A stretch of 64,000 bases of DNA from the NCBI RefSeq assembly GCF_003334405.1, contig NZ_QOWM01000008.1; one strand, written 5' to 3'. The notes under the pieces were generated by a model that was given only the letters and a program-made list of their open reading frames with translations, was not told the DNA's origin and did no database searches. Position 1 is the first letter of the stretch, and every line of letters starts with the position of its first letter. The stretch is from Escherichia coli. GTDB lineage: Bacteria; Pseudomonadota; Gammaproteobacteria; Enterobacterales; Enterobacteriaceae. The position numbers and the translations under genes are program-made. Positions 1-52,655 of this stretch are shown here, in pieces.

Positions 1-1553
1 ACTGGGATGAAAGTGATGTCGTGTTAATTACCTATGCCGATCAATTTCACAGCAATGATTTAAAACCATTACCCACATTTAATCAGTTTTACCATCAATG
101 GCTGCAAAGCATTTTTTCACATGTTCATTTGTTGCCGTTTTATCCATGGTCATCTGATGATGGCTTTTCGGTAATTGATTATCATCAGGTCGCCAGTGAA
201 GCGGGGGAGTGGCAGGATATTCAGCAACTCGGTGAATGCAGTCATTTAATGTTTGATTTTGTCTGCAACCATATGTCGGCAAAAAGTGAATGGTTTAAAA
301 ACTATTTACAACAGCATCCAGGTTTTGAAGATTTTTTTATTGCCGTTGACCCGCAAACCGATCTCAGCGCCGTCACTCGCCCGCGTGCGTTACCGTTATT
401 AACGCCATTCCAGATGCGCGATCATTCAACGCGCCATTTATGGACCACCTTTAGTGACGATCAAATTGACCTGAATTACCGTAGCCCTGAAGTGTTGCTG
501 GCGATGGTGGATGTTTTACTCTGTTACCTTGCGAAAGGTGCTGAGTATGTCCGCCTGGATGCCGTTGGCTTTATGTGGAAAGAGCCGGGAACAAGCTGCA
601 TCCATCTGGAAAAAACACATCTGATTATCAAACTGTTACGGTCGATTATTGATAACGTTGCGCCAGGTACAGTGATCATTACCGAGACCAATGTTCCGCA
701 TAAAGACAACATTGCTTACTTTGGCGCAGGCGATGACGAAGCACATATGGTGTACCAGTTCTCGCTGCCGCCACTGGTGCTGCATGCGGTGCAAAAACAG
801 AACGTTGAGGCGCTTTGTGCGTGGGCGCAAAACCTGACACTACCTTCCAGCAACACCACCTGGTTTAACTTCCTCGCCTCTCACGATGGCATCGGGCTAA
901 ACCCGCTACGGGGCTTGTTGCCTGAAAGCGAAATATTAGAGCTGGTCGAGGCGTTACAGCAGGAAGGTGCATTAGTAAACTGGAAAAATAATCCCGACGG
1001 TACACGCAGTCCGTATGAAATAAATGTGACCTATATGGATGCGTTAAGCCGCCGTGAGAGTAGCGATGAAGAACGTTGCGCCAGGTTTATCCTTGCCCAT
1101 GCGATTTTGTTAAGTTTCCCCGGTGTGCCAGCGATATATATTCAAAGTATTCTTGGCTCGCGTAATGATTACGCAGGTGTCGAAAAAATCGGATATAACC
1201 GTGCGATTAACCGTAAAAAATATCACAGTAAAGAGATAACCCGAGAACTGAACGATGAAGCTACATTAAGGCATGCGGTATATCATGAGTTGTCGCGTTT
1301 AATTACACTTCGTCGCAGCCATAACGAGTTTCATCCGGATAATAATTTTACCATTGATACGATTAATTCATCCGTAATGCGTATTCAAAGAAGTAACGCT
1401 GATGGTAATTGTCTGACTGGATTGTTTAATGTCAGTAAAAATATTCAGCATGTAAATATTACTAATCTGCATGGTCGGGATCTGATTAGTGAAGTTGATA
1501 TATTGGGTAATGAAATAACGCTGCGCCCCTGGCAGGTTATGTGGATTAAATAA
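1..1553 (+). CDS. ycjM: Sucrose-phosphorylase-family (GH13) enzyme, glucosylglycerate phosphorylase; 5' end lies outside the window
   Basis: Frame is open from position 1 to the stop at 1553; translation recognised as E. coli YcjM; first gene of the ycj cluster. Confidence 0.85.
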   Translation, partial: WDESDVVLITYADQFHSNDLKPLPTFNQFYHQWLQSIFSHVHLLPFYPWSSDDGFSVIDYHQVASEAGEWQDIQQLGECSHLMFDFVCNHMSAKSEWFKNYLQQHPGFEDFFIAVDPQTDLSAVTRPRALPLLTPFQMRDHSTRHLWTTFSDDQIDLNYRSPEVLLAMVDVLLCYLAKGAEYVRLDAVGFMWKEPGTSCIHLEKTHLIIKLLRSIIDNVAPGTVIITETNVPHKDNIAYFGAGDDEAHMVYQFSLPPLVLHAVQKQNVEALCAWAQNLTLPSSNTTWFNFLASHDGIGLNPLRGLLPESEILELVEALQQEGALVNWKNNPDGTRSPYEINVTYMDALSRRESSDEERCARFILAHAILLSFPGVPAIYIQSILGSRNDYAGVEKIGYNRAINRKKYHSKEITRELNDEATLRHAVYHELSRLITLRRSHNEFHPDNNFTIDTINSSVMRIQRSNADGNCLTGLFNVSKNIQHVNITNLHGRDLISEVDILGNEITLRPWQVMWIK

Positions 1554-1566
1554 AAAGGAACATCTC

Positions 1567-2859
1567 ATGATTAAATCAAAAATCGTGCTGTTATCAGCAC
1601 TGGTTTCATGCGCCCTGATTTCAGGCTGTAAAGAAGAAAATAAAACGAATGTATCCATCGAATTTATGCATTCTTCGGTGGAGCAGGAGCGCCAGGCCGT
1701 TATCAGTAAATTGATTGCCCGTTTTGAAAAAGAAAACCCTGGCATCACCGTTAAGCAAGTGCCCGTGGAAGAAGATGCCTATAACACTAAAGTCATTACT
1801 CTTTCACGTAGCGGTTCGCTGCCGGAAGTGATCGAAACCAGCCATGACTACGCCAAAGTGATGGACAAAGAGCAGCTTATCGATCGCAAAGCGGTTGCCA
1901 CAGTCATCAGCAACGTTGGTGAAGGCGCGTTTTACGATGGCGTACTGCGTATTGTGCGTACCGAAGATGGTAGCGCATGGACCGGTGTTCCTGTCAGCGC
2001 CTGGATTGGCGGTATCTGGTATCGCAAAGATGTGCTGGCAAAAGCGGGGCTTGAGGAGCCGAAAAACTGGCAACAGCTGCTGGACGTTGCACAGAAACTG
2101 AATGACCCGGCGAATAAAAAATACGGCATTGCGCTGCCTACAGCAGAAAGCGTGTTGACGGAACAATCCTTCTCCCAGTTTGCGTTATCCAACCAGGCTA
2201 ACGTCTTTAACGCCGAAGGCAAAATCACCCTTGATACACCAGAGATGATGCAGGCACTGACCTATTACCGCGACCTTGCTGCCAACACTATGCCGGGTTC
2301 TAACGACATCATGGAAGTGAAAGACGCCTTTATGAACGGCACCGCGCCGATGGCGATTTACTCCACCTATATCCTTCCGGCTGTGATTAAAGAAGGCGAC
2401 CCGAAAAACGTCGGTTTCGTGGTGCCAACCGAGAAAAACTCTGCGGTCTACGGCATGTTGACCTCGCTGACCATTACCGCCGGGCAAAAGACCGAAGAGA
2501 CGGAAGCAGCAGAAAAATTTGTCACCTTTATGGAGCAGGCAGACAACATTGCCGACTGGGTGATGATGTCGCCAGGTGCTGCGCTGCCGGTGAATAAAGC
2601 GGTGGTGACTACCGCCACCTGGAAAGACAACGACGTTATTAAGGCGCTGGGTGAACTACCGAATCAGCTAATCGGTGAACTGCCAAATATTCAGGTTTTT
2701 GGCGCAGTAGGGGATAAAAACTTTACCCGCATGGGTGATGTGACGGGTTCTGGCGTGGTGAGTTCAATGGTGCATAACGTCACCGTGGGTAAAGCCGATC
2801 TCTCTACTACGCTGCAAGCGAGCCAGAAAAAACTGGATGAACTGATCGAACAGCACTAA
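1567..2859 (+). CDS. ycjN: ABC transporter periplasmic sugar-binding protein
   Basis: 430-aa ORF with N-terminal signal peptide and lipobox-like LISGC; sits directly after ycjM. Confidence 0.85.
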   Translation: MIKSKIVLLSALVSCALISGCKEENKTNVSIEFMHSSVEQERQAVISKLIARFEKENPGITVKQVPVEEDAYNTKVITLSRSGSLPEVIETSHDYAKVMDKEQLIDRKAVATVISNVGEGAFYDGVLRIVRTEDGSAWTGVPVSAWIGGIWYRKDVLAKAGLEEPKNWQQLLDVAQKLNDPANKKYGIALPTAESVLTEQSFSQFALSNQANVFNAEGKITLDTPEMMQALTYYRDLAANTMPGSNDIMEVKDAFMNGTAPMAIYSTYILPAVIKEGDPKNVGFVVPTEKNSAVYGMLTSLTITAGQKTEETEAAEKFVTFMEQADNIADWVMMSPGAALPVNKAVVTTATWKDNDVIKALGELPNQLIGELPNIQVFGAVGDKNFTRMGDVTGSGVVSSMVHNVTVGKADLSTTLQASQKKLDELIEQH

Positions 2860-2879
2860 ACCCAGGACAGGAATCCGCA

Positions 2880-3761
2880 ATGAACAGGCTTTTTTCAGGT
2901 CGTTCCGATATGCCCTTTGCGCTGCTGCTTCTCGCGCCCAGCTTATTACTGCTGGGCGGTCTGGTGGCGTGGCCGATGGTGTCGAATATCGAAATCAGTT
3001 TTTTACGTCTGCCGCTCAATCCCAACATCGAGTCAACGTTTGTTGGGGTGAGCAACTATGTGCGTATCCTCTCCGATCCCGGCTTCTGGCATTCGCTGTG
3101 GATGACGGTCTGGTATACCGCGCTGGTGGTGGCGGGCAGCACCGTGCTCGGGCTGGCGGTGGCGATGTTTTTCAACCGCGAGTTCCGCCTGCGCAAAACC
3201 GCGCGTTCGCTGGTGATCCTCTCCTACGTAACGCCGTCCATTTCGCTGGTGTTCGCCTGGAAATACATGTTCAACAACGGCTACGGCATTGTTAACTACC
3301 TCGGCGTCGATCTTCTGCATCTCTATGAGCAGGCACCGCTGTGGTTCGATAATCCGGGCAGTAGCTTTGTGCTGGTGGTGCTGTTCGCCATCTGGCGCTA
3401 CTTCCCGTATGCCTTTATCTCGTTTCTGGCGATTTTGCAGACCATCGACAAATCGCTGTACGAAGCGGCAGAGATGGATGGCGCTAATGCCTGGCAACGG
3501 TTTCGTATCGTCACGCTGCCCGCAATTATGCCGGTCCTGGCGACGGTGGTGACACTGCGCACCATCTGGATGTTCTACATGTTCGCGGATGTTTATTTGC
3601 TGACGACCAAGGTCGATATTCTCGGTGTATATCTCTACAAAACCGCCTTTGCCTTTAATGATTTAGGAAAAGCGGCGGCGATCTCGGTGGTGCTCTTCAT
3701 CATTATTTTCGCTGTCATTCTGCTGACCAGGAAACGGGTGAACCTCAATGGCAACAAATAA
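2880..3761 (+). CDS. ycjO: ABC transporter permease
   Basis: 293-aa multi-helix hydrophobic protein of the MalF/UgpA type; overlaps the next permease gene. Confidence 0.85.
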   Translation: MNRLFSGRSDMPFALLLLAPSLLLLGGLVAWPMVSNIEISFLRLPLNPNIESTFVGVSNYVRILSDPGFWHSLWMTVWYTALVVAGSTVLGLAVAMFFNREFRLRKTARSLVILSYVTPSISLVFAWKYMFNNGYGIVNYLGVDLLHLYEQAPLWFDNPGSSFVLVVLFAIWRYFPYAFISFLAILQTIDKSLYEAAEMDGANAWQRFRIVTLPAIMPVLATVVTLRTIWMFYMFADVYLLTTKVDILGVYLYKTAFAFNDLGKAAAISVVLFIIIFAVILLTRKRVNLNGNK

Positions 3762-4590
3762 ACGCACACTCAGTCGCATCGGTTTTTACTGCGAGCTGGC
3801 GCTGTTTCTCATCATCACGCTGTTTCCATTTTTTGTGATGCTGATGACCTCGTTCAAGGGCGCGAAAGAGGCGATCTCACTGCATCCTACGCTGCTGCCG
3901 CAGCAGTGGACGCTGGAGCATTACGTCGACATTTTTAACCCGATGATTTTCCCGTTTGTCGACTACTTCCGTAACAGTCTGGTGGTGTCTGTGGTTTCAT
4001 CCGTGGTGGCGGTATTCCTCGGCATTCTTGGGGCTTACGCGCTTTCCCGCCTGCGCTTTAAAGGTCGGATGACCATCAACGCCAGCTTTTACACGGTGTA
4101 TATGTTCTCTGGCATTTTGCTGGTGGTGCCGCTTTTCAAAATCATCACCGCGCTTGGCATTTACGACACTGAGATGGCGCTGATCATCACCATGGTGACG
4201 CAAACTCTGCCCACCGCCGTGTTTATGCTGAAAAGCTACTTCGACACCATCCCCGATGAGATCGAAGAAGCGGCGATGATGGATGGCCTCAACCGTCTGC
4301 AAATTATCTTCCGCATCACCGTGCCGTTGGCGATGTCCGGGCTGATATCCGTGTTCGTCTACTGCTTTATGGTGGCGTGGAACGACTATCTGTTTGCGTC
4401 GATTTTCCTCTCCAGCGCCAGCAATTTCACCTTACCGGTGGGCCTGAACGCGCTGTTCAGTACGCCAGATTACATCTGGGGACGGATGATGGCGGCCTCA
4501 CTGGTGACCGCATTGCCGGTGGTGATTATGTATGCGCTTTCGGAACGTTTTATTAAGAGTGGTTTGACCGCCGGTGGCGTGAAGGGCTAA
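3748..4590 (+). CDS. ycjP: ABC transporter permease
   Basis: 280-aa hydrophobic protein of the MalG/UgpE type; start overlaps the ycjO stop. Confidence 0.85.
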   Translation: MATNKRTLSRIGFYCELALFLIITLFPFFVMLMTSFKGAKEAISLHPTLLPQQWTLEHYVDIFNPMIFPFVDYFRNSLVVSVVSSVVAVFLGILGAYALSRLRFKGRMTINASFYTVYMFSGILLVVPLFKIITALGIYDTEMALIITMVTQTLPTAVFMLKSYFDTIPDEIEEAAMMDGLNRLQIIFRITVPLAMSGLISVFVYCFMVAWNDYLFASIFLSSASNFTLPVGLNALFSTPDYIWGRMMAASLVTALPVVIMYALSERFIKSGLTAGGVKG

Positions 4591-4620
4591 AGCGGCCAGT
4601 TTCTTTACAAGGAGTTTTAA

Positions 4621-5673
4621 ATGAAAAAGTTAGTAGCCACAGCACCGCGTGTTGCTGCGCTGGTTGAGTATGAAGATCGGGCGATTTTAGCTAATGAAGT
4701 GAAGATCCGCGTGCGTTTCGGCGCACCGAAACACGGAACGGAAGTGGTCGACTTCCGCGCCGCCAGCCCGTTTATTGATGAAGACTTTAACGGCGAATGG
4801 CAGATGTTCACTCCGCGTCCGGCAGATGCGCCGCGCGGCATTGAGTTTGGCAAATTCCAGCTTGGCAACATGGTGGTTGGCGACATTATCGAGTGCGGCA
4901 GCGACGTTACCGACTACGCGGTGGGCGACAGCGTATGCGGCTACGGCCCGCTCTCCGAGACGGTCATCATTAACGCAGTGAATAACTACAAGCTGCGCAA
5001 AATGCCGCAAGGCAGCTCCTGGAAAAACGCCGTCTGCTACGACCCGGCGCAGTTTGCCATGAGCGGCGTGCGCGATGCCAACGTGCGCGTAGGGGATTTT
5101 GTGGTGGTGGTAGGGCTTGGCGCAATCGGTCAAATTGCCATCCAACTGGCTAAACGCGCTGGCGCTTCTGTGGTGATTGGCGTCGATCCTATCGCCCATC
5201 GCTGTGATATTGCCCGTCGCCACGGCGCGGATTTCTGCCTTAACCCCATCGGCACTGATGTAGGTAAAGAGATCAAAACGCTGACCGGCAAGCAGGGTGC
5301 CGATGTGATTATCGAAACCAGCGGCTACGCCGACGCGCTGCAATCGGCGCTCCGCGGTCTGGCTTATGGCGGCACCATCTCCTATGTCGCGTTTGCCAAG
5401 CCGTTTGCCGAAGGTTTTAACCTCGGACGCGAAGCGCATTTCAATAACGCCAAAATTGTCTTCTCTCGCGCGTGCAGCGAACCGAACCCGGATTATCCGC
5501 GCTGGAGCCGCAAGCGTATTGAAGAAACCTGTTGGGAACTGCTGATGAACGGTTATCTCAATTGCGAAGATTTAATCGACCCGGTGGTGACCTTTGCCAA
5601 TAGCCCGGAAAGCTATATGCAGTATGTCGACCAGCATCCGGAACAGAGCATCAAAATGGGCGTTACGTTTTAA
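4621..5673 (+). CDS. ycjQ: Zn-dependent sugar dehydrogenase (MDR family)
   Basis: 350-aa ORF with a Rossmann GLGAIG motif; SD sequence AAGGAG upstream. Confidence 0.8.
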   Translation: MKKLVATAPRVAALVEYEDRAILANEVKIRVRFGAPKHGTEVVDFRAASPFIDEDFNGEWQMFTPRPADAPRGIEFGKFQLGNMVVGDIIECGSDVTDYAVGDSVCGYGPLSETVIINAVNNYKLRKMPQGSSWKNAVCYDPAQFAMSGVRDANVRVGDFVVVVGLGAIGQIAIQLAKRAGASVVIGVDPIAHRCDIARRHGADFCLNPIGTDVGKEIKTLTGKQGADVIIETSGYADALQSALRGLAYGGTISYVAFAKPFAEGFNLGREAHFNNAKIVFSRACSEPNPDYPRWSRKRIEETCWELLMNGYLNCEDLIDPVVTFANSPESYMQYVDQHPEQSIKMGVTF

Positions 5674-7545: not shown

Positions 7546-9809
7546 CCAGGCCAGTAACGTTATCAGAACCCCATTTCAGCCAGCATACCCTGAACAAGTA
7601 TGCATCGCTGATGGCGCAGGGGAACGGCTATCTTGGGCTTCGCGCCAGCCATGAAGAAGATTACACGCGCCAGACGCGAGGGATGTATCTGGCGGGGCTG
7701 TATCATCGGGCGGGAAAAGGTGAAATCAACGAACTGGTGAACCTGCCTGATGTCGTGGGGATGGAGATTGCCATAAATGGTGAGGTTTTCTCGTTATCCC
7801 ACGAAGCCTGGCAGCGTGAGCTTGACTTTGCCAGTGGCGAATTACGCCGCAATGTTGTCTGGCGTACCAGCAACGGCTCAGGTTACACCATCGCCAGCCG
7901 TCGCTTTGTTTCGGCAGACCAACTGCCGCTCATTGCGCTGGAAATCACTATTACGCCACTGGACGCCGACGCGTCAGTGCTGATTTCAACAGGCATTGAC
8001 GCCACGCAAACCAATCACGGTCGCCAACATCTCGACGAAACCCAGGTGCGGGTGTTTGGTCAGCATCTGATGCAGGGGAGCTACACCACCCAGGATGGAC
8101 GCAGTGATGTGGCCATCAGCTGTTGCTGTAAGGTGAGCGGTGATGTGCAGCAATGCTATACCGCCAAAGAGCGCCGTTTACTGCAACATACCAGTGCGCA
8201 GCTTCATGCAGGCGAGACAATGACGTTGCAAAAACTGGTGTGGATCGACTGGCGGGATGACAGGCAAGCTGCTTTAGACGAGTGGGGCAGCGCGTCGCTT
8301 CGCCAGCTTGAAATGTGCGCGCAGCAGAGTTACGACCAACTTCTTGCAGCATCAACAGAAAACTGGCGTCAATGGTGGCAGAAACGTCGTATCACGGTAA
8401 ATGGCGGCGAAGCGCACGATCAGCAAGCGTTAGATTATGCGCTTTATCATCTGCGCATCATGACGCCTGCCCACGACGAGCGCAGCAGCATTGCGGCAAA
8501 AGGCTTAACCGGCGAAGGCTACAAAGGCCACGTTTTCTGGGATACAGAAGTATTTTTGTTACCGTTTCATCTGTTTAGCGATCCGACGGTTGCCCGAAGT
8601 TTACTGCGTTATCGCTGGCACAACTTGCCAGGCGCGCAGGAGAAAGCGCGACGCAACGGCTGGCAGGGCGCGCTATTTCCGTGGGAAAGCGCGCGCAGCG
8701 GCGAAGAAGAGACGCCGGAATTTGCCGCCATTAACATTCGCACCGGGCTGCGGCAAAAAGTGGCCTCGGCGCAGGCGGAACATCATCTGGTGGCCGATAT
8801 CGCCTGGGCGGTTATTCAATACTGGCAGACCACGGGGGATGAAAGTTTCATTGCGCATGAAGGCATGGCGCTACTTCTGGAGACGGCAAAGTTCTGGATT
8901 AGCCGCGCGGTGAGAGTTAACGATCGTCTGGAAATTCATGATGTTATTGGGCCAGACGAATATACCGAACATGTCAATAATAATGCATACACCAGCTATA
9001 TGGCCCGCTACAACGTTCAACAGGCGCTGAATATTGCCCGCCAGTTCGGCTGTAGCGACGATGCGTTTATCCATCGCGCCGAAATGTTCCTCAAAGAGCT
9101 ATGGATGCCAGAAATTCAGCCCGACGGCGTTTTGCCGCAGGATGATTCGTTTATGGCTAAGCCGGCGATTAATCTGGCGAAATACAAAGCGGCGGCGGGG
9201 AAGCAAACCATACTGCGGGATTATTCACGCGCAGAAGTGAACGAGATGCAGATCCTCAAACAAGCTGATGTGGTGATGCTCAATTACATGCTGCCGGAGC
9301 AGTTCTCAGCGGCATCGTGTCTTGCCAATCTGCAATTTTATGAACCGCGCACTATTCACGACTCGTCATTAAGTAAAGCAATCCACGGCATTGTTGCCGC
9401 ACGCTGTGGCCTGCTGACCCAAAGTTATCAGTTCTGGCGCGAGGGGACTGAAATCGATCTTGGTGCTGATCCGCATAGTTGTGATGATGGTATCCATGCT
9501 GCCGCAACTGGCGCTATCTGGCTGGGGGCGATTCAGGGTTTTGCCGGGGTGAGCGTGCGTGACGGTGAATTGCATCTCAATCCGGCGTTACCTGAGCAGT
9601 GGCAACAGTTGTCTTTCCCTCTGTTCTGGCAGGGCTGCGAATTACAGGTCACTCTTGACGCGCAGCGTATTGCGATTCGAACTTCTGCGCCCGTTTCACT
9701 GCGTTTGAACGGTCAGCTTATAACCGTGGCTGAAGAATCTGTTTTCTGTTTGGGTGATTTTATTTTGCCCTTCAATGGGACCGCTACCAAACATCAGGAG
9801 GATGAATGA
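7542..9809 (+). CDS. ycjT: GH65 kojibiose phosphorylase
   Basis: 755-aa ORF; start overlaps ycjS stop and stop overlaps ycjU start. Confidence 0.85.
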
Positions 9810-10465
9810 AACTGCAAGGGGTAATTTTCGATCTGGATGGTGTAATCACCGATACCGCGCATCTGCATTTCCAGGCGTGGCAGCAGATTGCCGCTGAAAT
9901 TGGCATCAGCATTGATGCGCAGTTTAACGAATCCCTAAAAGGGATCAGCCGCGATGAGTCTCTGCGGCGCATTCTGCAACACGGGGGCAAAGAGGGCGAC
10001 TTTAACTCGCAGGAGAGGGCGCAACTGGCGTATCGCAAAAATCTGCTCTATGTCCACTCACTACGCGAGTTGACGGTCAACGCTGTTCTACCCGGCATTC
10101 GCTCTTTGCTGGCAGATCTCCGTGCACAGCAGATCTCGGTTGGGCTGGCTTCTGTCTCCCTGAATGCGCCGACGATTTTAGCGGCGCTGGAGCTGCGCGA
10201 GTTTTTCACCTTCTGCGCGGATGCTTCCCAACTTAAAAACTCGAAACCGGACCCGGAAATCTTTCTCGCCGCCTGTGCAGGGCTGGGCGTGCCGCCGCAG
10301 GCATGTATCGGCATTGAAGATGCGCAGGCGGGCATTGACGCCATTAACGCCAGCGGTATGCGCTCGGTGGGGATCGGCGCGGGCTTAACCGGGGCGCAAT
10401 TACTGTTGCCTTCAACGGAATCACTCACCTGGCCGCGGTTATCGGCCTTCTGGCAAAACGTATAG
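9806..10465 (+). CDS. ycjU: Beta-phosphoglucomutase (HAD superfamily)
   Basis: 219-aa ORF with N-terminal HAD motif DLDGVITDT. Confidence 0.85.
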
Positions 10466-10478
10466 CAAAGGAATCAAC

Positions 10479-11561
10479 ATGGCTCAGCTTTCGTTACAAC
10501 ATATTCAAAAAATCTACGATAACCAGGTGCATGTGGTGAAGGACTTCAACCTGGAAATTGCCGATAAAGAGTTCATCGTGTTTGTCGGCCCGTCGGGCTG
10601 CGGTAAGTCGACCACCCTGCGCATGATTGCCGGGCTTGAGGAGATCAGCGGCGGCGATCTGTTGATCGACGGCAAACGAATGAATGACGTTCCAGCCAAA
10701 GCACGCAATATAGCGATGGTGTTCCAGAACTACGCGTTGTATCCGCATATGACGGTTTACGACAATATGGCGTTTGGTCTGAAGATGCAAAAAATCGCCA
10801 AAGAGGTGATTGATGAGCGGGTGAACTGGGCGGCGCAAATTCTCGGCCTGCGTGAGTACCTGAAACGTAAGCCGGAGGCGCTTTCCGGCGGGCAACGTCA
10901 GCGAGTGGCGCTTGGGCGGGCGATTGTACGCGAAGCGGGCGTGTTTTTAATGGATGAACCGCTCTCTAACCTTGATGCCAAGCTGCGCGTGCAAATGCGC
11001 GCAGAGATCAGCAAGCTGCATCAGAAACTGAACACCACCATGATCTACGTGACCCACGATCAGACCGAAGCGATGACCATGGCGACGCGGATTGTGATTA
11101 TGAAAGACGGGATTGTTCAGCAAGTAGGTGCGCCGAAAACCGTTTATAACCAACCCGCGAATATGTTTGTTTCCGGATTTATTGGATCACCAGCGATGAA
11201 TTTTATTCGCGGCACGATCGATGGCGATAAATTCGTTACGGAAACGCTTAAATTAACCATTCCCGAAGAGAAATTAGCGGTTCTGAAAACACAGGAAAGT
11301 TTGCATAAGCCCATCGTGATGGGAATACGACCGGAAGATATTCATCCGGACGCGCAAGAGGAAAATAACATTTCCGCCAAAATTAGCGTGGCAGAATTAA
11401 CCGGTGCGGAATTTATGCTCTACACCACGGTTGGGGGGCACGAGTTAGTGGTCCGTGCTGGTGCGTTAAATGATTATCATGCAGGAGAAAATATCACTAT
11501 TCATTTTGATATGACGAAATGTCATTTCTTTGATGCAGAAACGGAAATAGCAATTCGCTAA
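10479..11561 (+). CDS. ycjV: ABC transporter ATP-binding protein (MalK-like), intact
   Basis: 360-aa ORF with Walker A GPSGCGKST, signature LSGGQRQR and Walker B FLMDEP. Confidence 0.85.
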   Translation: MAQLSLQHIQKIYDNQVHVVKDFNLEIADKEFIVFVGPSGCGKSTTLRMIAGLEEISGGDLLIDGKRMNDVPAKARNIAMVFQNYALYPHMTVYDNMAFGLKMQKIAKEVIDERVNWAAQILGLREYLKRKPEALSGGQRQRVALGRAIVREAGVFLMDEPLSNLDAKLRVQMRAEISKLHQKLNTTMIYVTHDQTEAMTMATRIVIMKDGIVQQVGAPKTVYNQPANMFVSGFIGSPAMNFIRGTIDGDKFVTETLKLTIPEEKLAVLKTQESLHKPIVMGIRPEDIHPDAQEENNISAKISVAELTGAEFMLYTTVGGHELVVRAGALNDYHAGENITIHFDMTKCHFFDAETEIAIR

Positions 11562-11605
11562 ATACAGGGGGAAGGCATTCCCCCAGGATAATACAAGGAA
11601 CAATA

Positions 11606-12511
11606 ATGAAAAAGTTATTACCCTGTACCGCACTGGTGATGTGTGCGGGAATGGCCTGCGCACAGGCCGAGGAAAGGAACGACTGGCACTTTAATATCGG
11701 CGCGATGTACGAAATAGAAAACGTCGAGGGTTATGGCGAAGATATGGATGGGCTGGCGGAGCCTTCAGTCTATTTTAATGCCGCCAACGGGCCGTGGAGA
11801 ATTGCTCTGGCCTATTATCAGGAAGGGCCGGTAGATTATAGCGCGGGTAAACGTGGAACGTGGTTTGATCGCCCGGAGCTGGAGGTGCATTATCAGTTCC
11901 TCGAAAACGATGATTTCAGTTTCGGCCTGACCGGCGGTTTCCGTAATTATGGTTATCACTACGTTGATGAACCGGGTAAAGACACGGCGAATATGCAGCG
12001 CTGGAAAATCGCGCCAGACTGGGATGTGAAACTGACTGACGATTTACGTTTCAACGGTTGGTTGTCGATGTATAAATTTGCCAACGATCTGAACACTACC
12101 GGTTACGCTGATACCCGTGTCGAAACGGAAACAGGTCTGCAATATACCTTCAACGAAACGGTTGCCTTGCGAGTGAACTATTATCTCGAGCGCGGCTTCA
12201 ATATGGACGACAGCCGCAATAACGGTGAGTTTTCCACGCAAGAAATTCGCGCCTATTTGCCGCTGACGCTCGGCAACCACTCGGTGACGCCGTATACGCG
12301 CATTGGGCTGGATCGCTGGAGTAACTGGGACTGGCAGGATGATATTGAACGTGAAGGCCATGATTTTAACCGTGTAGGTTTATTTTACGGTTATGATTTC
12401 CAGAACGGACTTTCCGTTTCGCTGGAATACGCGTTTGAGTGGCAGGATCACGACGAAGGCGACAGTGATAAATTCCATTATGCAGGTGTCGGCGTAAATT
12501 ACTCGTTCTGA
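11606..12511 (+). CDS. ompG: Outer-membrane porin OmpG
   Basis: 301-aa ORF with signal peptide, beta-barrel-like alternating sequence and C-terminal YSF. Confidence 0.9.
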   Translation: MKKLLPCTALVMCAGMACAQAEERNDWHFNIGAMYEIENVEGYGEDMDGLAEPSVYFNAANGPWRIALAYYQEGPVDYSAGKRGTWFDRPELEVHYQFLENDDFSFGLTGGFRNYGYHYVDEPGKDTANMQRWKIAPDWDVKLTDDLRFNGWLSMYKFANDLNTTGYADTRVETETGLQYTFNETVALRVNYYLERGFNMDDSRNNGEFSTQEIRAYLPLTLGNHSVTPYTRIGLDRWSNWDWQDDIEREGHDFNRVGLFYGYDFQNGLSVSLEYAFEWQDHDEGDSDKFHYAGVGVNYSF

Positions 12512-12519
12512 TAATGGGC

Positions 12520-12605
12520 TAAATTGCCGGATGCGGCGCGAGTACTTTATCCGATCTATAAATGTAGGCCGGATAAGATGCGCTAGCATCGCATCTGGCA
12601 TTCAG
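12520..12605. repeat. REP/BIME-type palindromic elements
   Basis: Imperfect palindromes of the GCCGGATGCGGCG...CTTATCCGGCCTAC type between convergent ompG and ycjW. Confidence 0.6.
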
Positions 12606-12621
12606 GCAAGGTAGCTGGTAT

Positions 12622-13620
12622 TTATTTCAGCGTCATATGCGTGGCAACGGTAATATTCTGTGGTGACGGTTTTCCAGAAATTAAGCGGAATAATAACTCG
12701 CAGCTTTGTTGACCTAACTCCTGCGTCGGAACATCGATGCCGCCCGGTGCAGGCGTTAAAATAAATGACAGCGTTTCATTGCTATAACCCACCACCGCTA
12801 ACTGCTGCGGAATAGCAATATTTTTCTCTGCTGCCGCACGATAAATGCTCATTAATTTCAGGCTGTCAGTGGCAAACACCGCCTCAGGCAACGGTGACTG
12901 GCTTAATAATTGCCGTGCTGCTTTTAATGCAGTTTCATGGGTATAACCGCCATCAACAATCCATTCATCACGCACTGCAATATTATGCGCAGCCAGGCTC
13001 TGCTTATAACCATTAACGCGATCAACCGAAACATGGACATCAAGCGGAGCATGCAGGCAGGCAATATTTTGATGCCCACTTTCAATTAATGCATCGGTCA
13101 ACGCAATGCTGTCGCCAAAATTATCGGTATCGACAGAATAAACATGGGCATATTGACCTTCAACTTTGCCAATCACCACCACCGGAATATCATATTTATC
13201 GAGTTGGGCAAAAAATGACTCATCCGCTGGCGAACTGAGCATAATAATGCCTTTAATCATTTTCTGCTTAATTTTGCTTTCGCATTTTTGCAGATCTTCT
13301 GCCGGATTGTGCGACGTTTGTAATATCACGTCGAAACCTTCTTCTTCAGCTTTGGCGGTGATGGCATGCAAAACTTCAGAGAAAAACGGATTACCCGCCG
13401 TAGTTTTGGTCGAACGGGTAGAAATCACCATAATGGCATCAAAACCCGAAGAGGTCAGCGCGCGGGCCAGCTTGTTTGGCTGATACTGTAATTCTTCAAT
13501 GGCCCGTAACACTTTTTCGCGCGCTTCCGGGGAGATATTAGTTTGCTTATTCAGCACGCGTGATACGGTGGATTTTGATACGCCTGCAACCCTGGCAATA
13601 TCATAAATAGTAGGGGACAT
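12622..13620 (-). CDS. ycjW: LacI-family transcriptional regulator
   Basis: 332-aa ORF with N-terminal HTH ([21 protein letters not shown]) and periplasmic-binding-like body. Confidence 0.85.
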
Positions 13621-48656: not shown

Positions 48657-49127
48657 CTTATCTATCCCCTTAACGCCGGGTGTACAAATTTTGCGTTCAG
48701 CGGAAAACCTGGTACCGGGAAGAACCACTTAGCGGCAGCTATCGGGAATCGCCTGCTGAAAGACGGTCAGACAGTGATTGTGGTTACCGTGGCTGATGTT
48801 ATGAGTGCCCTGCACGCCAGCTATGACGACGGGCAGTCAGGCGAAAAATTTTTGCGGGAACTGTGCGAAGTGGATCTGCTGGTTCTTGATGAAATTGGCA
48901 TTCAGCGCGAGACGAAAAACGAGCAGGTGGTACTGCACCAGATTGTTGATCGCCGGACAGCGTCGATGCGCAGCGTGGGGATGCTGACAAACCTGAACTA
49001 TGAGGCCATGAAAACATTGCTTGGCGAGCGGATTATGGATCGCATGACCATGAACGGCGGGCGATGGGTGAATTTCAACTGGGAGAGCTGGCGTCCGAAT
49101 GTCGTCCAGCCAGGAATTGCGAAGTAA
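48648..49127 (+). pseudogene. ydaV: N-terminally truncated DnaC-like replication/helicase-loader gene (ydaV homologue); only the AAA+ half is present
   Basis: Homology begins at Walker A FSGKPGTGKNHLAAAI and runs through VDLLVLDEIG and the DnaC-like C-terminus; the N-terminal domain is absent and the 5' end overlaps the ydaG start. Confidence 0.6.
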
Positions 49128-49149
49128 TTTTTACCGGGAGAAAAATTTA

Positions 49150-49911
49150 ATGGAGACTGTTTTTGACGTACTGAAAGCAATGGGAAAAGCCACATCCATA
49201 GAACTTGCTGCGCGACTTGATATCAGTCGTGAAGAAGTGCTGAACGAACTATGGGAACTGAAAAAGGCTGGTTTCGTTGATAAAAGCGCGTACACCTGGC
49301 GTGTGGCTGATAACAACGTTCAGCAGGAACAGCCAGCGCCGGCAGAACTGCCGGAAGAAACTACCACGGCAACAGTCGCGAAAATTTCAGAGAGCGATTT
49401 AACTGCGACGATTGAACAACGTGGACCACAAACGGCGGATGAGCTGGCTACATTGTTTGGTACCACATCACGCAAAGTGGCTTCAACGCTGGCAATGGCA
49501 ATCAGCAAAGGTCGTCTGCTTCGCGTAAATCAGGGCGGTAAATTTCGTTACTGCATACCGGGCGATAATTTACCAGCAGAGCCGAAAGCAGCATCGGTAG
49601 CGGAAACTGCTGGTAAGGCCTTTCCTCAGCCCGCAGGTGTTGCGTTACCAGTACAGGAGGCTGCAACACAGGAAGATATTAAAACAGAAACTGTGGCGGA
49701 CATTGTGCAGTCGCTGCCATCGTTTACTGAAACGCGAGCGGATGACCTGGTTTTACCATCACTGCATATGGCAAACCGCGAACTGCGTCGGGCGAAAAAT
49801 CATGTCCAGAAGTGGGAGCGTGTCTGCGCCGCGCTGCGGGAGCTGAACAAGCACAGGGATATTGTACGACAGATTACTGATTCTTCCCGCCATGTTGCAT
49901 CGGAAAAGTGA
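49150..49911 (+). CDS. Prophage protein with two tandem winged-helix-like segments
   Basis: ORF 49099-49911; start placed at METVFDVLK after GGAG; two similar segments ([28 protein letters not shown] and [28 protein letters not shown]). Confidence 0.5.
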
Positions 49912-49926
49912 TTGCCGGAGGCACCT

Positions 49927-50349
49927 ATGGCAAAAGTATTTACACCAGAAGAGCGGGAAAAAATTAAAGGGCAGGTTGTTGAACTTGTACGTCTGAGCGG
50001 TCGCGAGACGTTACGGGCTCTGGAGGCTAAAACCGGTGCATCAAGGTATTACATAAGCACTCTCGCCAGAGAACTGGTCGCCAGTGGTGATGTTTACAAT
50101 TCAGGCTACGGATTATTCCCGTCTGAGCAGGCGCGTAAAGACTGGCAAAACGCCCGCAAAAAACTATCAAGGGCAAAGGTGAAGAAACCGGTTGTGGTTG
50201 ATCCTGACCTTATCTGGTCATTACCAGACGGAGAAATACGCCGTTACGACAGGCGTCTGAACATAATCTGTCGCGAGTGCCTGAAGAGAGAAGTTATGCA
50301 GCGTGTACTTGCGTTCTACCATGGAAATATTCAGGAGGTTGTGTGGTGA
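49927..50349 (+). CDS. Hypothetical prophage protein
   Basis: ORF 49912-50349; start placed at MAKVFTPEER after GGAGG; a 36-codon GTG-initiated ORF (50346-50456) with AGGAGG follows. Confidence 0.45.
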   Translation: MAKVFTPEEREKIKGQVVELVRLSGRETLRALEAKTGASRYYISTLARELVASGDVYNSGYGLFPSEQARKDWQNARKKLSRAKVKKPVVVDPDLIWSLPDGEIRRYDRRLNIICRECLKREVMQRVLAFYHGNIQEVVW

Positions 50350-50523
50350 ACAAGATTAACTATCCGTGGGTAGTCGCTGTCAATGCTTTACTTGCTGAAG
50401 TTCGGGCGGGCGCATTTAACGATCTTTGCGCGGAACAACTTCGTACGCATGAATAATTAAGTTAGCACTGTAAATAAAATTTAATCCTTAGCCGGAGGTA
50501 TTTCTGCACCCTCATAAAATCAG

Positions 50524-50547
50524 GAAACCGCCCGAAAGGGCGGTGGT
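50524..50547. terminator. Bidirectional intrinsic terminator between convergent prophage units
   Basis: Hairpin ACCGCCC-gaaa-GGGCGGT with T-rich flanks on both strands. Confidence 0.55.
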
Positions 50548-50555
50548 TTCATTGT

Positions 50556-51110
50556 TTAACTATCTAATATTGTGCTAAATCTTTTTATAACCATCAAGAA
50601 TGTTACTACGGTAAAAAAGAAGGATGAGTATGCTAAATAACTGATTATGTAAGCAGGGGTTGCGAAATACCATTTTTTTAATTCACTTGGGGTTTCTGGG
50701 AGAAAATATATTGCAACCGAAAAAATAACTAACGCTACAGATGTTAATATAGCATAAGAAACATTGTGACATAATTGCTCATATACGGTTTTATTATTAT
50801 TTAAAATTATTAGATTTGAACGTGGTTTGTTGTTTTCCTCAATGTCTGAAATTTTAAATACAGTTTTTTGTTTTTGATCGTAGATCATAATAACCGCGCT
50901 CATTAACAGTGCGGTAGTAATTGCTCCAAAGTTAACAAAAACAGATGCGATAGAGGTTTTCATTATCCCATAGGTAAAACATATGATTAATGATAATGTA
51001 AGAGGAATAATGAAGTGTATTGCGATGTCTTCGAGTAAAATATTTCCGCGTTGATCCGACATTGTTGTGTAATGTTTTTTTATTACACTCATTACGTTAA
51101 TCTTGTTCAT
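50556..51110 (-). CDS. Four-helix integral membrane protein (184 aa), downstream gene of an uncharacterised two-gene cassette
   Basis: Four hydrophobic segments of about 20 residues; start ATG overlaps the upstream gene stop (ATGA); AT-rich. Confidence 0.55.
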   Translation of the reverse strand: MNKINVMSVIKKHYTTMSDQRGNILLEDIAIHFIIPLTLSLIICFTYGIMKTSIASVFVNFGAITTALLMSAVIMIYDQKQKTVFKISDIEENNKPRSNLIILNNNKTVYEQLCHNVSYAILTSVALVIFSVAIYFLPETPSELKKWYFATPAYIISYLAYSSFFFTVVTFLMVIKRFSTILDS

Positions 51111-52039
51111 ATTTTTAATCCCCCATTACCACTATGTAACTCACTTAGTATATCATTCGCAATGATTTTAACAGTGTCATGAAGTGCTTTAAGATCGGGG
51201 ATTCCTGTAGATGCGTTTATGTTTAAGTCGTTATCATCTAATTCGGCAGAAATTCCTTTTCTTAAGATGGTGTCGTAATTAAAAATGACTGTTCTATTGC
51301 CTAATTGTAAACTAACTTTTATTGCGTCACACTTATCTTCAATTATTTCTATTATATTTCCTAGTTTTTTGTCTTTTAAGTCTTTAAAACTACCAAATAC
51401 GCCTTGATTTGCTTTTATTACCAAATCGGTTTTGATGTTTGTTTTGTTATTTCCGAATGAATCCGTGATGTCCTTTGGTGCTTTGTAACCTTGGGCTTTT
51501 ATTTGTTTTAATTCTGAATCAAGGATGTGTTGGGGGATTTTTTTGTGGCAAAGAGGATTGATTCTCGCTTCAAGTTTATATTTTGTTTTCAAGTGGTCTA
51601 GTAATGCATCAGAGAGTGTGCTGCGAGCAGAAATATTGTCATTAGCGTGAAATGCTATAATCCCTTCTTCTAAATTGTCTGGCAAAAATATTAAAATGTA
51701 ACGCTGTTTGAGAGTTACATCGTTGATAGTTGTTGTATAACGTATTTTAGTAAGTTTATCGTCTTTTATTTCACTGCTCTCACCATATTTCCCAACCTTT
51801 ACATATCCATATATTACTTGGTTTTGAGCATCAAAGGTGAGTGATGTGTGTTGTTCAAGAGAAACCTTTGTTTTCGAGAGACCAAATTCAATAGGTGTGT
51901 TTTTATAGCTATTAAAATACTCAACAAATAATTCATATGCTGTTTTTTTATCGCTTAAACCTAGGTTGTTTAGTCTTTTGCTGGTTCGGCTGCCCTTGTG
52001 GGTTAACACACGGAATGAATAGAAGTTAACGCTGTGCAT
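51107..52039 (-). CDS. Uncharacterised soluble Lys/Asn-rich protein (310 aa), upstream gene of the two-gene cassette
   Basis: No transmembrane segment or nucleotide-binding motif seen; AT-rich codon usage unlike flanking genes; coupled to the membrane gene. Confidence 0.55.
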   Translation of the reverse strand: MHSVNFYSFRVLTHKGSRTSKRLNNLGLSDKKTAYELFVEYFNSYKNTPIEFGLSKTKVSLEQHTSLTFDAQNQVIYGYVKVGKYGESSEIKDDKLTKIRYTTTINDVTLKQRYILIFLPDNLEEGIIAFHANDNISARSTLSDALLDHLKTKYKLEARINPLCHKKIPQHILDSELKQIKAQGYKAPKDITDSFGNNKTNIKTDLVIKANQGVFGSFKDLKDKKLGNIIEIIEDKCDAIKVSLQLGNRTVIFNYDTILRKGISAELDDNDLNINASTGIPDLKALHDTVKIIANDILSELHSGNGGLKI

Positions 52040-52406
52040 GAAAAGTCCTTTTGAACATATAGGAATATATTAGAGCATGAATGTGTGCAATGCATAAAAG
52101 AAAAAGCTACCGCAAGGCGACTCCACCCACAGATAGCTCTTAATTGATTGTTTGTAAAAAATAATACATTAATTATCTTCTGTGTAAAGAGGGAAACAGC
52201 CTTAGGGTAAGGGACACGAGTTGGGGGGATTGGTGAAATTTGCGTTGAGGATAAAACGATTTGCGGGAAAAGGATAGTTAAGTAGAATTGCTGCGGGTGC
52301 TTGAGGCTGTCTGCCTCGGGCATGAACACCAAAGGCAGATAGAGAAAAGCCCCAGTTAACATTACGCGTCCGGCAAGACGCTTAACATTAATCTGAGGCC
52401 ACATCT

Positions 52407-52655
52407 ATGCTTTGCATACGTAGATTAGCCTCTTACCGACCAAAAGGTCAAGGAGAAGCAGGCTATGAAGCAGCAAAAGGCGATGTTAATCACCCTGATC
52501 GTCATCTGTTTAACCGTTATAGTGACGGTACTGGTAACGAGGAAAGACCTCTGCGAGGTACGAATCCGAACCGACCAGACGGAGGTCGCTGTCTTCACAG
52601 CTTACGAACTTGGGGAGTAAGAGGACCAGCGGGGAGAAATCCCCGCAACCTCTGA
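52407..52655 (+). CDS. mok: mok-like overlapping reading frame (start uncertain)
   Basis: 82-codon ORF in another frame that fully overlaps hok, as in hok/mok/sok loci. Confidence 0.4.
   Translation: MLCIRRLASYRPKGQGEAGYEAAKGDVNHPDRHLFNRYSDGTGNEERPLRGTNPNRPDGGRCLHSLRTWGVRGPAGRNPRNL
52465..52620 (+). CDS. hok: Hok-family type I toxin (51 aa)
   Basis: Hand-translated MKQQKAMLITLIVICLTVIVTVLVTRKDLCEVRIRTDQTEVAVFTAYELGE, near-identical to recalled HokD/RelF; AAGGAG 9 nt upstream. Confidence 0.8.
   Translation: MKQQKAMLITLIVICLTVIVTVLVTRKDLCEVRIRTDQTEVAVFTAYELGE

Follow-up and report, generated by a model that had tools for sequence, protein, structure and literature searches.

Catalogued winged-helix families YdaW and LygF in a conserved slot after phage replication genes, at an Escherichia coli prophage locus with an upstream deletion

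The characterised relative of lygF, one of the genes described here, is ren of phage lambda, whose product lets the phage escape RexA/RexB exclusion (bioRxiv 10.1101/2021.04.19.439022). Rex excludes ren-minus phages, and the suppressors of this phenotype lie in O and P; Ren contacts RexB in the yeast two-hybrid assay and both RexA and RexB in the bacterial two-hybrid assay (bioRxiv 10.1101/2021.04.19.439022, supplement). The authors consider Ren likely to be involved in DNA replication and cite an earlier statement (Weigel and Seitz 2006) according to which ren is present in every initiator-plus-loader module (bioRxiv 10.1101/2021.04.19.439022). The gene is listed as non-essential in the literature and was scored non-essential once polarity on Q was relieved. 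It overlaps the end of P, giving the order O-P-ren, and Rac-type phages have the order ydaU-ydaV-ydaW-lygF, with the ydaW-lygF pair after the replication genes.

The two proteins of that pair are known mainly as families. YdaW of the E. coli K-12 Rac prophage belongs to DUF1627 and is encoded after ydaV, but the K-12 gene is a pseudogene of which only the first 453 nt remain, without the C-terminal helix, and K-12 has no lygF. In an overexpression screen (a preprint), K-12 ydaW came up among the blockers of RcaT, the toxin of retron-Sen2; the screen used the pseudogene fragment, and the mechanism follow-up in the preprint dealt with racC, not ydaW. LygF is found in the Sdf region of Salmonella Enteritidis and in Rac-type coliphages, and its name carries no functional information.

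A prophage locus with a probably recent upstream deletion

The locus lies in a 64,000-nucleotide stretch of E. coli DNA (the window), whose numbering is used throughout. Its plus strand carries a truncated ydaV, ORF1, ORF2, and the 36-codon ORF3, in that order, followed by a GC-rich hairpin. The features are:

48648..49127, plus strand: truncated ydaV, DnaC-like helicase loader (NCBIfam PRK12377 and phrog_50)
48676..48682, no strand: deletion junction with a 7-bp overlap of the flanks (BLASTN against the E. coli L73 locus)
49150..49911, plus strand: ORF1, YdaW, 253 aa (Pfam PF07789, phrog_630, AlphaFold2)
49927..50349, plus strand: ORF2, LygF, 140 aa, readable as a long-form Ren relative (PF06163, phrog_142, hhalign, AlphaFold2)
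50333..50349, plus strand: translational-coupling junction AGGAGG-N7-GTGA inside the end of lygF (sequence; 80 IMG/VR loci)
50346..50456, plus strand: ORF3, 36 codons (partial phrog_27745 match; DNA alignment with a 66-aa gene)
50527..50544, extendable to 50524-50549, no strand: GC-rich hairpin ACCGCCC-GAAA-GGGCGGT (terminator scan, RNA fold)

The earlier note had read from the letters a truncated ydaV followed by a 253-aa ORF with two tandem winged-helix-like segments, a 140-aa ORF, and a 36-codon GTG ORF with a strong AGGAGG whose start lies over the previous stop, and each of these stands. ORF1 and ORF2 are already catalogued, widespread early-operon families (Pfam E 3e-98 and 2e-25, respectively, far beyond chance). 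A point that the note missed is that ORF3 does not make up a unit with them, being the decayed remnant of a small gene where a mosaic junction lies. Matches to the region occur in 3,959 of 5,426 complete E. coli genomes, and annotated loci in 13 complete genomes are 99.9% identical to the window locus. Across prophages both genes are under purifying selection (median dN/dS 0.28 for ydaW and 0.12 for lygF). What this analysis demonstrates is which families the proteins belong to, their fold, the order of the genes, the purifying selection on them across prophages, and the deletion described below.

The truncated ydaV, which also matches the DnaC-like helicase loaders of phrog_50, covers only positions 97-248 of the 248 of PRK12377 (E 1.7e-91), and its score of 306 bits falls below the curated cut-off of 389. 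It retains the C-terminal ATPase part and lacks the N-terminal ~96 residues, and the first ~10 codons of the open frame at 48648 are not ydaV sequence. BLASTN against the 99.9% identical locus of E. coli L73 aligned window positions 43708-48682 with 1-4975 of that locus and 48676-52643 with 7577-11544, so that the window lacks 2,601 bp relative to L73. According to the L73 annotation, the missing segment holds the genes for the repressor and a cro/ydaS-like protein, ydaT and a ydaU-like gene, together with 295 nt from the 5' end of ydaV; the divergent intergenic region, where the early rightward promoter would be expected, is gone as well. The earlier note missed that the deletion truncating ydaV also took the repressor and the early promoter region. 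The window copy of ydaW thus differs from that of K-12 in being intact and in having lost its native promoter region.

The junction-spanning sequence was found in none of the 5,426 complete E. coli genomes and none of 80 related IMG/VR loci, so that among these the deletion is private to this genome, which suggests that it is recent. Because the repressor and the early promoter region are lost, normal expression of the ORFs here is doubtful; with the replication initiator deleted too, the genes are probably silent passengers of a defective prophage. There is about an even chance that all three ORFs are inert remnants in this genome, unexpressed, without present function, and intact because the deletion is recent. 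Apart from the deletion and its privacy, this reading draws on ORF3 being already internally deleted and on promoter-like matches in the region being no commoner than in shuffled sequence. It has to be set against the full length of ORF1 and ORF2, their 99.9% DNA identity to copies in intact operons, and possible read-through from the upstream plus-strand sieB unit. It concerns expression here rather than the role of the proteins and is compatible with any functional explanation.

Domain composition of YdaW and LygF

ORF1 starts with ATG at 49150, with GGGAGA 8 nt upstream, and stops at 49909-49911; RefSeq annotates the same extent in strain L73 (WP_000450716.1), and hundreds of E. coli proteins match it at 85-97% identity. 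Residues 88-242 match the complete PF07789 model (1-155 of 155, E 3.4e-98), and residues 1-249 match phrog_630 (E 2.9e-129). YdaW is composed of a first winged helix (1-52), a second winged helix (81-135), two disordered linkers, and a C-terminal helix (205-252), with a conserved short motif within a disordered linker at about residues 184-205; this architecture is shared in an alignment of 45 full-length members that are 20-68% identical. AlphaFold2 predicted both winged helices with high confidence (pLDDT 94-98; mean over the protein 80.7) but not their mutual orientation (pTM 0.35). The first winged helix, with its recognition helix, is acidic, and the second winged helix and the C-terminal helix are basic.

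ORF2 runs from ATG at 49927, with GGAGG 5 nt upstream, to a stop at 50347-50349. Its identity to the LygF proteins annotated in 24 sequenced E. coli/Shigella phages is 67-95%, and it is a typical member with no notable difference from LygF of the Sdf region and the Rac-type coliphages. Residues 1-136 match PF06163 (DUF977) at positions 1-134 of 134 (E 2.2e-25). It also matches phrog_142, "Ren-like exclusion protein" (E 1.5e-41, profile positions 1-115 of 116), as does lambda Ren (E 1.6e-41, positions 11-110 of 116). Alignment against alignment, LygF and Ren matched in hhalign at 93% (E 3.3e-7), with LygF 110-132 corresponding to Ren 71-93. A single-protein scan for distant DUF977 relatives gave one locus. 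AlphaFold2 modelled LygF as a winged helix (7-64), a basic helix (67-83), a low-confidence insert (85-112), and a C-terminal helix. That last helix reads N-I-I-C-R-E-C-x-K-x-E-V-M-Q-R-V-L-A-F-Y, and hhalign and a joint alignment place it on the Ren-family motif N-x-I-x-x-E-C-R-x-S-x-x-M-x-R-V-L-A-x-Y.

From these profile comparisons, LygF/DUF977 may be regarded as a longer version of lambda Ren (96 aa). The two share an N-terminal winged-helix region, the C-terminal E-C-R-x-S-x-x-M-x-R-V-L-A-x-Y helix, a basic pI, and a gene position at the end of the replication block in the rightward early operon. LygF exceeds Ren by 44 residues; it has 11 extra residues at the N-terminus and an insert of some 45 residues (the basic helix plus an SLPDGEIRRY segment) that is absent from Ren, and direct BLASTP similarity covers only 20 residues (9/20 identical). 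The second winged helix predicted in YdaW is of this Ren/LygF type as well, since it matches the LygF/Ren winged helix at 93.7% in hhalign (E 1.9e-7). A BLASTP hint (SLPSF vs SLPDG, and EIRR motifs) raised the C-terminal half of YdaW as a LygF paralogue; profile comparison backs the winged-helix part only. The earlier note had held that no function could be read from the sequence, which was too pessimistic for ORF2, a member of the family of lambda Ren.

Structure was less informative. Sequence searches of the PDB with YdaW and LygF gave nothing significant, and fold searches (both models against the PDB, LygF also against viral predicted structures) returned generic winged-helix proteins only, among them MarR, GntR, MntR, and ScpB, at E about 5e-4 or weaker. 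Since the matches are generic, the predicted structures do not discriminate between functions. PADLOC gave sub-threshold winged-helix matches for YdaW (Csa3 and CasR C-terminal domains) and no defence-model match for LygF or ORF3. The best structural matches that span both winged helices of YdaW are the condensin subunit ScpB and ESCRT-II subunits, in which tandem winged helices serve protein binding and not operator recognition. These are weak matches (E 5e-4 to 1e-2, TM-score about 0.2, 8-17% identity), and ScpB has neither long disordered linkers nor a basic C-terminal helix, so the likeness is architectural only.

These domains invite the reading, the default one for winged-helix proteins, that YdaW and LygF bind specific DNA sequences and regulate transcription in the delayed-early region or of genes of the host. 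The winged-helix folds come with high prediction confidence, the structural neighbours are mostly repressors, profile searches gave weak matches to the MarR, ArsR, MntR, and Lrs14 families, and K-12 YdaW has been treated as a candidate transcription factor (PMC9308461). All of the regulator-family matches, however, are far below cut-offs, the recognition helix of the first YdaW winged helix is acidic like the rest of that domain, and the best tandem-domain matches are to protein-binding modules. A search for operators and iterons in and around the genes found only short repeats at chance level and no repeated or palindromic candidate, and the literature on Ren cited here reports no regulator activity for this characterised relative. 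We consider such a regulatory role distinctly unlikely.

ORF3 and the convergent end of the locus

ORF3 starts with GTG at 50346, overlapping the TGA of ORF2 (GTGA), and is preceded by AGGAGG at 50333-50338, 7 nt upstream. Instead of matching phrog_27745 (accessory proteins of 66-76 aa) over its full length, it matches positions 2-33 of 76 only (E 6.4e-9), whereas the intact 66-aa form in E. coli M19 matches positions 2-66 (E 2.1e-42). DNA alignment with M19 has a 90-bp gap between TTGCGCGG and TTGTGCGG, equal to 30 missing internal codons. ORF3, as judged from this alignment, is an in-frame 90-bp deletion derivative of the 66-aa accessory gene, not an intact gene, and is probably non-functional. 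Among the 80 related IMG/VR loci, four have the 36-aa form and one the 66-aa form.

GTGA stands at the lygF stop in 54 of these 80 loci, mostly with AGGAGG-like sequence before it, and the ORFs that follow are of at least six unrelated types. By this comparison, AGGAGG-N7-GTGA is a mosaic recombination point common to many different downstream genes. We also asked whether the gene after lygF in Rac-SA53 ("rac19") begins with ORF3; that gene encodes a DUF4406 protein, which rules this out.

The hairpin at 50527-50544 begins 70 nt past the ORF3 stop and 12 nt past the stop of the converging minus-strand gene. It has a 7-pair stem and a GAAA loop, with tails that are only moderately T-rich on either strand. 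At least 22 related loci keep it; M19 shows a compensatory change (CCACCC/GGGTGG), and there are several wobble-compatible changes. Most of the related loci lack a T-rich tail behind it. Terminator-like sites on both strands are not in excess here (6 vs 5.3 in shuffled sequence). The earlier note had the ORFs end at a bidirectional terminator; the hairpin is there and conserved, but the terminator call itself is weak given these counts and tails. From its placement between converging units, a role as a two-way terminator is plausible. There was no Rfam match in 49150-50560.

The slot after the replication genes and its possible roles

YdaW and LygF mark a conserved slot after replication genes. 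Like ren in lambda, ydaW and lygF usually lie just after them: in HannyBb and L028 an O-like or other initiator gene stands immediately before lygF, and in L089 and L090 ydaW homologues come after lambda-P-type loaders. In Rac-type phages the arrangement differs from that of ren in that ydaW stands between the loader gene and lygF, which does not overlap its upstream gene. Exceptions are loci where lygF or ydaW sits beside RecE/RecT or an exonuclease VIII gene, away from the loader, with an exonuclease-gene neighbour in PhiR46_1. The modules with which the two genes co-occur are DnaC-type, lambda-P-type, initiator-only, and primase-based. Each gene is also found without the other, and there are loci in which LygF is 90% identical and YdaW 65%, indicating independent recombination; the two therefore do not form an obligate pair.

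Our best explanation, held tentatively and at somewhat less than an even chance, is that these are ren-slot genes encoding Ren-type, replication-linked proteins that counter exclusion as Ren does, with the three ORFs closing the early rightward (replication) operon in a lambdoid prophage of the Rac type, in the slot of lambda ren. During lytic growth, YdaW and LygF would be made together with the replication proteins; they would act mainly through protein contacts, perhaps with DNA contacts through their basic winged-helix and helical parts, and would stop exclusion or abortive-infection systems from aborting phage replication, as Ren does against RexA/RexB. Counting against an anti-exclusion role are the 20-residue limit of LygF-Ren pairwise similarity, the generic fold matches, the non-obligate pairing, the use of the K-12 fragment in the retron screen, and the description of Ren itself as probably replication-related. 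So does the search for a target nearby, as neither PADLOC nor BLASTP found a RexA/RexB homologue beside ydaW/lygF. The PADLOC models do recognise the lambda proteins (RexA 1e-108, RexB 9e-61). The minus-strand cassette at 50556-52039, a soluble ~300-aa protein followed by a 4-TM protein, is like rexAB in architecture only and was rejected as RexA/RexB, having no similarity by the PADLOC models or BLASTP.

Alternatively, YdaW and LygF may be replication accessory proteins that modulate the initiator, helicase loader, or host replication proteins (for example in the choice of origin or in the change from theta to rolling-circle replication), so that exclusion would be affected secondarily, if at all. 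The usual position of the genes right after replication genes of whatever module type fits this, as do the ren-minus suppressors in O and P and the link that the authors draw between Ren and DNA replication (bioRxiv 10.1101/2021.04.19.439022); the basic second winged helix, basic C-terminal helix, and linker motif of YdaW are typical of replication-complex adaptors. But lambda does not need ren to grow on hosts without Rex, both genes also sit beside recombination genes and away from any loader, and the variety of partner modules speaks against one specific replication partner. We regard this reading as somewhat unlikely. Homology to replication accessory proteins, which the earlier note had named as counting against its own candidates, was found in half measure, Ren being tied to the replication module genetically and by position.

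Beyond Ren-like exclusion escape, a broader proposal would make YdaW and LygF a related winged-helix anti-defence pair, with LygF acting against Rex-like membrane systems and YdaW against retron-type toxins by direct binding through the shared Ren-type winged helix; this we think unlikely. The anti-defence factors that the earlier note had listed as candidates gain support from the homology of LygF to Ren and from the appearance of K-12 ydaW in the retron toxin screen.

The discovery value of the locus is small: both families have been catalogued, a large share of E. coli genomes carries them, and the copy here is probably silent. The gains are modest: LygF as a long Ren, the second domain of YdaW as one of the same type, and a conserved slot after the replication genes, where ren has been studied for 45 years. 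If YdaW and LygF did form an anti-defence pair, the "ren slot" after the replication genes would be a general counter-defence locus of lambdoid phages.

The early region of a Rac-type prophage

At 43.5-52.6 kb, the window holds the early region of a lambdoid E. coli prophage of the Rac type. The gene order past recE is a racC-like gene, ydaE, kilR, sieB, ydaF, and ydaG, followed by the ydaV remnant and three small ORFs (ORF1-ORF3), and beyond these lie a two-gene cassette and hok/sok:

43515-46586, minus strand: recE, with a reading frame of 1023 aa that agrees with the 3072-nt recE annotated in strain L73
49150-49911, plus strand: ORF1, YdaW, 253 aa, with a suitably spaced Shine-Dalgarno sequence and the same extent as in RefSeq
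49927-50349, plus strand: ORF2, LygF, 140 aa, likewise with a suitably spaced Shine-Dalgarno sequence and the RefSeq extent
50333-50349: AGGAGG-N7-GTGA, a coupling/recombination junction at the lygF end, common to many prophages
50346-50456, plus strand: ORF3, 36 codons, with a GTG start
50527-50544: GC-rich hairpin between the converging genes
50556-52039, minus strand: two-gene cassette of low GC (31-35%), converging on ORF1-ORF3
52295-52470 and 52465-52620: hok/sok type I toxin-antitoxin, as a sok Rfam match (105 bits, which exceeds the gathering threshold) and an ORF of 51 aa resembling Hok, respectively

Thirteen complete E. coli chromosomes carry the 1461 bases around ORF1-ORF3 at 99.9% identity; these bases are matched at least partly in 3959 of 5426 complete E. 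coli genomes and covered to at least 80% in 895. The L73 locus is likewise 99.9% identical to the window, apart from a deletion in the latter and an IS421 (IS4-like) insertion in L73, which lies just past hok (11545-12881 of that locus) and is absent from the window at 52632-52643. The minus strand of the kilR-sieB interval has sub-threshold Rfam matches to DicF (47610-47665, 39 bits against a threshold of 48) and STnc100 (47422-47608, 35.5 bits against 47), which may reflect a DicF-like small RNA that has diverged in this Rac variant.

The earlier note had called ydaV truncated, and indeed its product matches the DnaC-like model PRK12377 at profile positions 97-248 only. Alignment with L73 showed that 2601 bp are absent from the window, with a 7-bp overlap at the junction (48676-48682). 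By the L73 annotation, the deletion took the repressor and, jointly with it, the neighbouring ydaS/ydaT-type genes (one cro/ydaS-like gene and ydaT); it also took the divergent intergenic region, a ydaU-like gene, and 295 nt of ydaV. The deletion is private to this genome, as its junction is absent from all 5426 complete E. coli genomes and from all 80 related viral contigs (IMG/VR). ORF1-ORF3 here are without the repressor and without the region where the early promoter would be. There is an even chance that they are silent in this genome, which would be compatible with any functional reading.

LygF, YdaW, and the link to Ren

LygF is a full-length member of Pfam DUF977, a family previously seen only as a winged-helix fold (PMC2686095), and is annotated under this name in sequenced Rac-type phages. 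Among PHROG families, LygF matches phrog_142 ("Ren-like exclusion protein") best, at E 1.5e-41 over positions 1-115 of the 116 in the profile; lambda Ren, the protein that counters RexA/RexB exclusion, matches the same profile at E 1.6e-41. Direct BLASTP of LygF against Ren aligned the C-terminal 20 residues only, and profile-profile comparison of separate LygF and Ren alignments gave 93% probability and E 3.3e-7, with the motif N-I-I-C-R-E-C-R-K-S-E-V-M-Q-R-V-L-A-F-Y. In a joint alignment, the N-terminal region of Ren falls on the LygF winged helix, and LygF is longer by an N-terminal extension and by an insert of ~45 residues. In the AlphaFold2 model of LygF, residues 7-64 form a winged helix at high confidence and residues 67-83 a basic helix, followed by an insert of low confidence and a C-terminal helix; fold searches returned generic winged-helix regulators only.

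Pfam places YdaW in DUF1627 as a full-length member (E 3.4e-98); in PHROGs it falls into phrog_630, a family without assigned function. Exhaustively searching 1.84 billion cluster representatives yielded no more than 179 YdaW clusters. Two blocks are conserved in the family alignment (45 full-length members, 20-68% identity) and fold as winged helices; the alignment also has two linkers that vary, a conserved helix (E-I-R-R-T-K...L-E), and a conserved short motif with the consensus hydrophobic-x-x-I/L-P-x-F, then R-x-D-D-L-x-I-P-T. The motif (in fuller form V-x-S-I/L-P-x-F-T...R-x-D-D-L-x-I-P-T for the family; residues ~184-205 of YdaW, 49699-49760) lies within a disordered linker and looks like a docking peptide for some partner; it had no match to known motifs. 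The tandem winged-helix-like segments that the earlier note had read in the 253-aa protein were recovered in the blocks of the alignment and in the AlphaFold2 model built on it (pLDDT 94-98 at residues 1-52 and 81-135, and above 90 in the C-terminal helix). The linkers are of low confidence, and because pTM is 0.35 the domain arrangement is undefined. Profile comparison matches winged helix 2 of the YdaW family with the winged helix of LygF/Ren (93.7% probability, E 1.9e-7), and the neighbours ydaW and lygF thus have a common domain type.

The predicted YdaW fold by itself assigns no function. Foldseek against the PDB matched ScpB, ESCRT-II, and one structural-genomics protein across both domains, and MarR/ArsR-type repressors with single domains, all at E ~5e-4 or weaker. 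We consider it improbable that YdaW and LygF are conventional transcription regulators, because a search for a candidate operator found none, one YdaW domain is acidic (winged helix 1, pI 4.9; winged helix 2 and the C-terminal helix are basic, pI 9.6 and 10.8), and the structural matches to the tandem domains are protein-binding modules. The sole functional hint that we found for YdaW is an overexpression screen in which K-12 ydaW was among the prophage genes blocking the retron-Sen2 toxin RcaT (bioRxiv 10.1101/2020.06.22.160242). K-12 ydaW is a pseudogene that retains the first 453 nt only, and lygF is absent from K-12.

The lygF-end junction, ORF3, and the hairpin

The GTG start of ORF3 (50346) overlaps the ORF2 stop as GTGA, as originally described, and lies 7 nt past the AGGAGG. 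Of 80 loci, 54 retain the GTGA at the lygF end, in most cases behind an AGGAGG-like sequence, and the sequence downstream is highly variable. At least six unrelated reading frames begin at this same GTG in different prophages (comparison loci L009-L088), including a DUF4406 protein, a methyltransferase-like protein, an 84-91-aa protein, a 27-aa ORF, and the phrog_27745 gene; therefore, the strong Shine-Dalgarno sequence is part of a conserved coupling/recombination junction and not specific to ORF3.

ORF3 itself is best read as a decayed accessory gene. It matches phrog_27745 over the first 33 of 76 profile positions only, and the gene at the same place in E. coli M19 encodes 66 aa with a full match. 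DNA alignment revealed an in-frame gap of 90 bp (30 codons) between TTGCGCGG and TTGTGCGG in the window, in L73, and in one Rac isolate. Among the 80 related viral contigs, four have the 36-aa form and one has the 66-aa form. Between the two available 66-aa forms, 7 codons differ synonymously and 10 non-synonymously, which hints at weak constraint on this gene.

The hairpin (CCGCCC-GAAA-GGGCGG) is real and marks a mosaic boundary: it occurs in at least 22 related loci, with one compensatory double change in M19 and several further wobble-compatible variants. The earlier note had called it a bidirectional terminator. It lies between converging genes, and two-way termination is plausible; the tails in the window are only moderately T-rich, those in most of the related loci are A-rich, and a consensus terminator scan of the region gave no excess of such sites over shuffled sequence. 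With this qualification, the observation as a whole was confirmed in all its described elements, including the 140-aa ORF.

Beyond the hairpin, the cassette encodes a 310-aa soluble protein and, with a 4-nt overlap, a 184-aa protein with about four membrane spans. It has the size and order of RexA-RexB and sits next to a Ren homologue (LygF); its proteins have no sequence similarity to RexA/RexB and no Pfam, PADLOC, or PDB match, and both are listed as unknown in PHROGs (phrog_15676 and phrog_15250). Only 15 of the 5426 complete E. coli genomes carry the cassette, which we regard as a candidate for a novel exclusion "moron".

Replication context and proposed role

The YdaW gene ends 18 nt upstream of the lygF start in 77 of the 80 IMG/VR loci with a close LygF relative. 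Recombination exchanges the two genes independently of each other (in some loci LygF is 90% identical and YdaW 65%), and either can occur without the other. LygF lies directly behind an O-like initiator in phage HannyBb, behind another initiator in a related locus (L028), and behind an exonuclease gene in PhiR46_1. Distant YdaW homologues come after lambda-P-type loaders, and others adjoin RecE/RecT, together with a DUF977 gene and NinX, or, in a P2-like element, an exonuclease VIII gene. Purifying selection acts on both genes across variants (median dN/dS 0.12 for LygF and 0.28 for YdaW).

The lambda ren gene is listed as non-essential for plaque formation. The genes O, P, and ren have overlapping ends, and their co-translation has been described. 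Growth of ren-minus phages on Rex+ lysogens is poor, and suppressors map in O and P; in two-hybrid assays, Ren interacts with RexB in yeast and with both RexA and RexB in bacteria (supplement of bioRxiv 10.1101/2021.04.19.439022). The same authors call ren "likely involved in DNA replication". A direct replication-accessory role of YdaW and LygF is the main rival to an anti-exclusion role, and we regard it as rather doubtful.

By analogy with Ren and from the one screen result, we tentatively propose that YdaW and LygF may have anti-exclusion activity. We read ydaW, lygF, and ORF3 as the tail of the early replication operon, with LygF as a Ren-family protein and YdaW bearing a related domain. 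During lytic growth, both would accompany the replication proteins and keep exclusion or abortive-infection systems from aborting replication, acting mainly via protein contacts. The earlier note's interpretation, regulators or anti-defence factors, is thus partly supported, its anti-defence half tentatively and its regulator half less so.

Family, fold, synteny, selection, and deletion are established in this analysis. The sequences of ORF1 and ORF2 belong to already known, annotated families, and the additions made here are solely the explicit LygF-Ren link (already implicit in PHROGs), the winged-helix type shared by YdaW, the reading of ORF3 as a remnant, and the deletion private to this genome.
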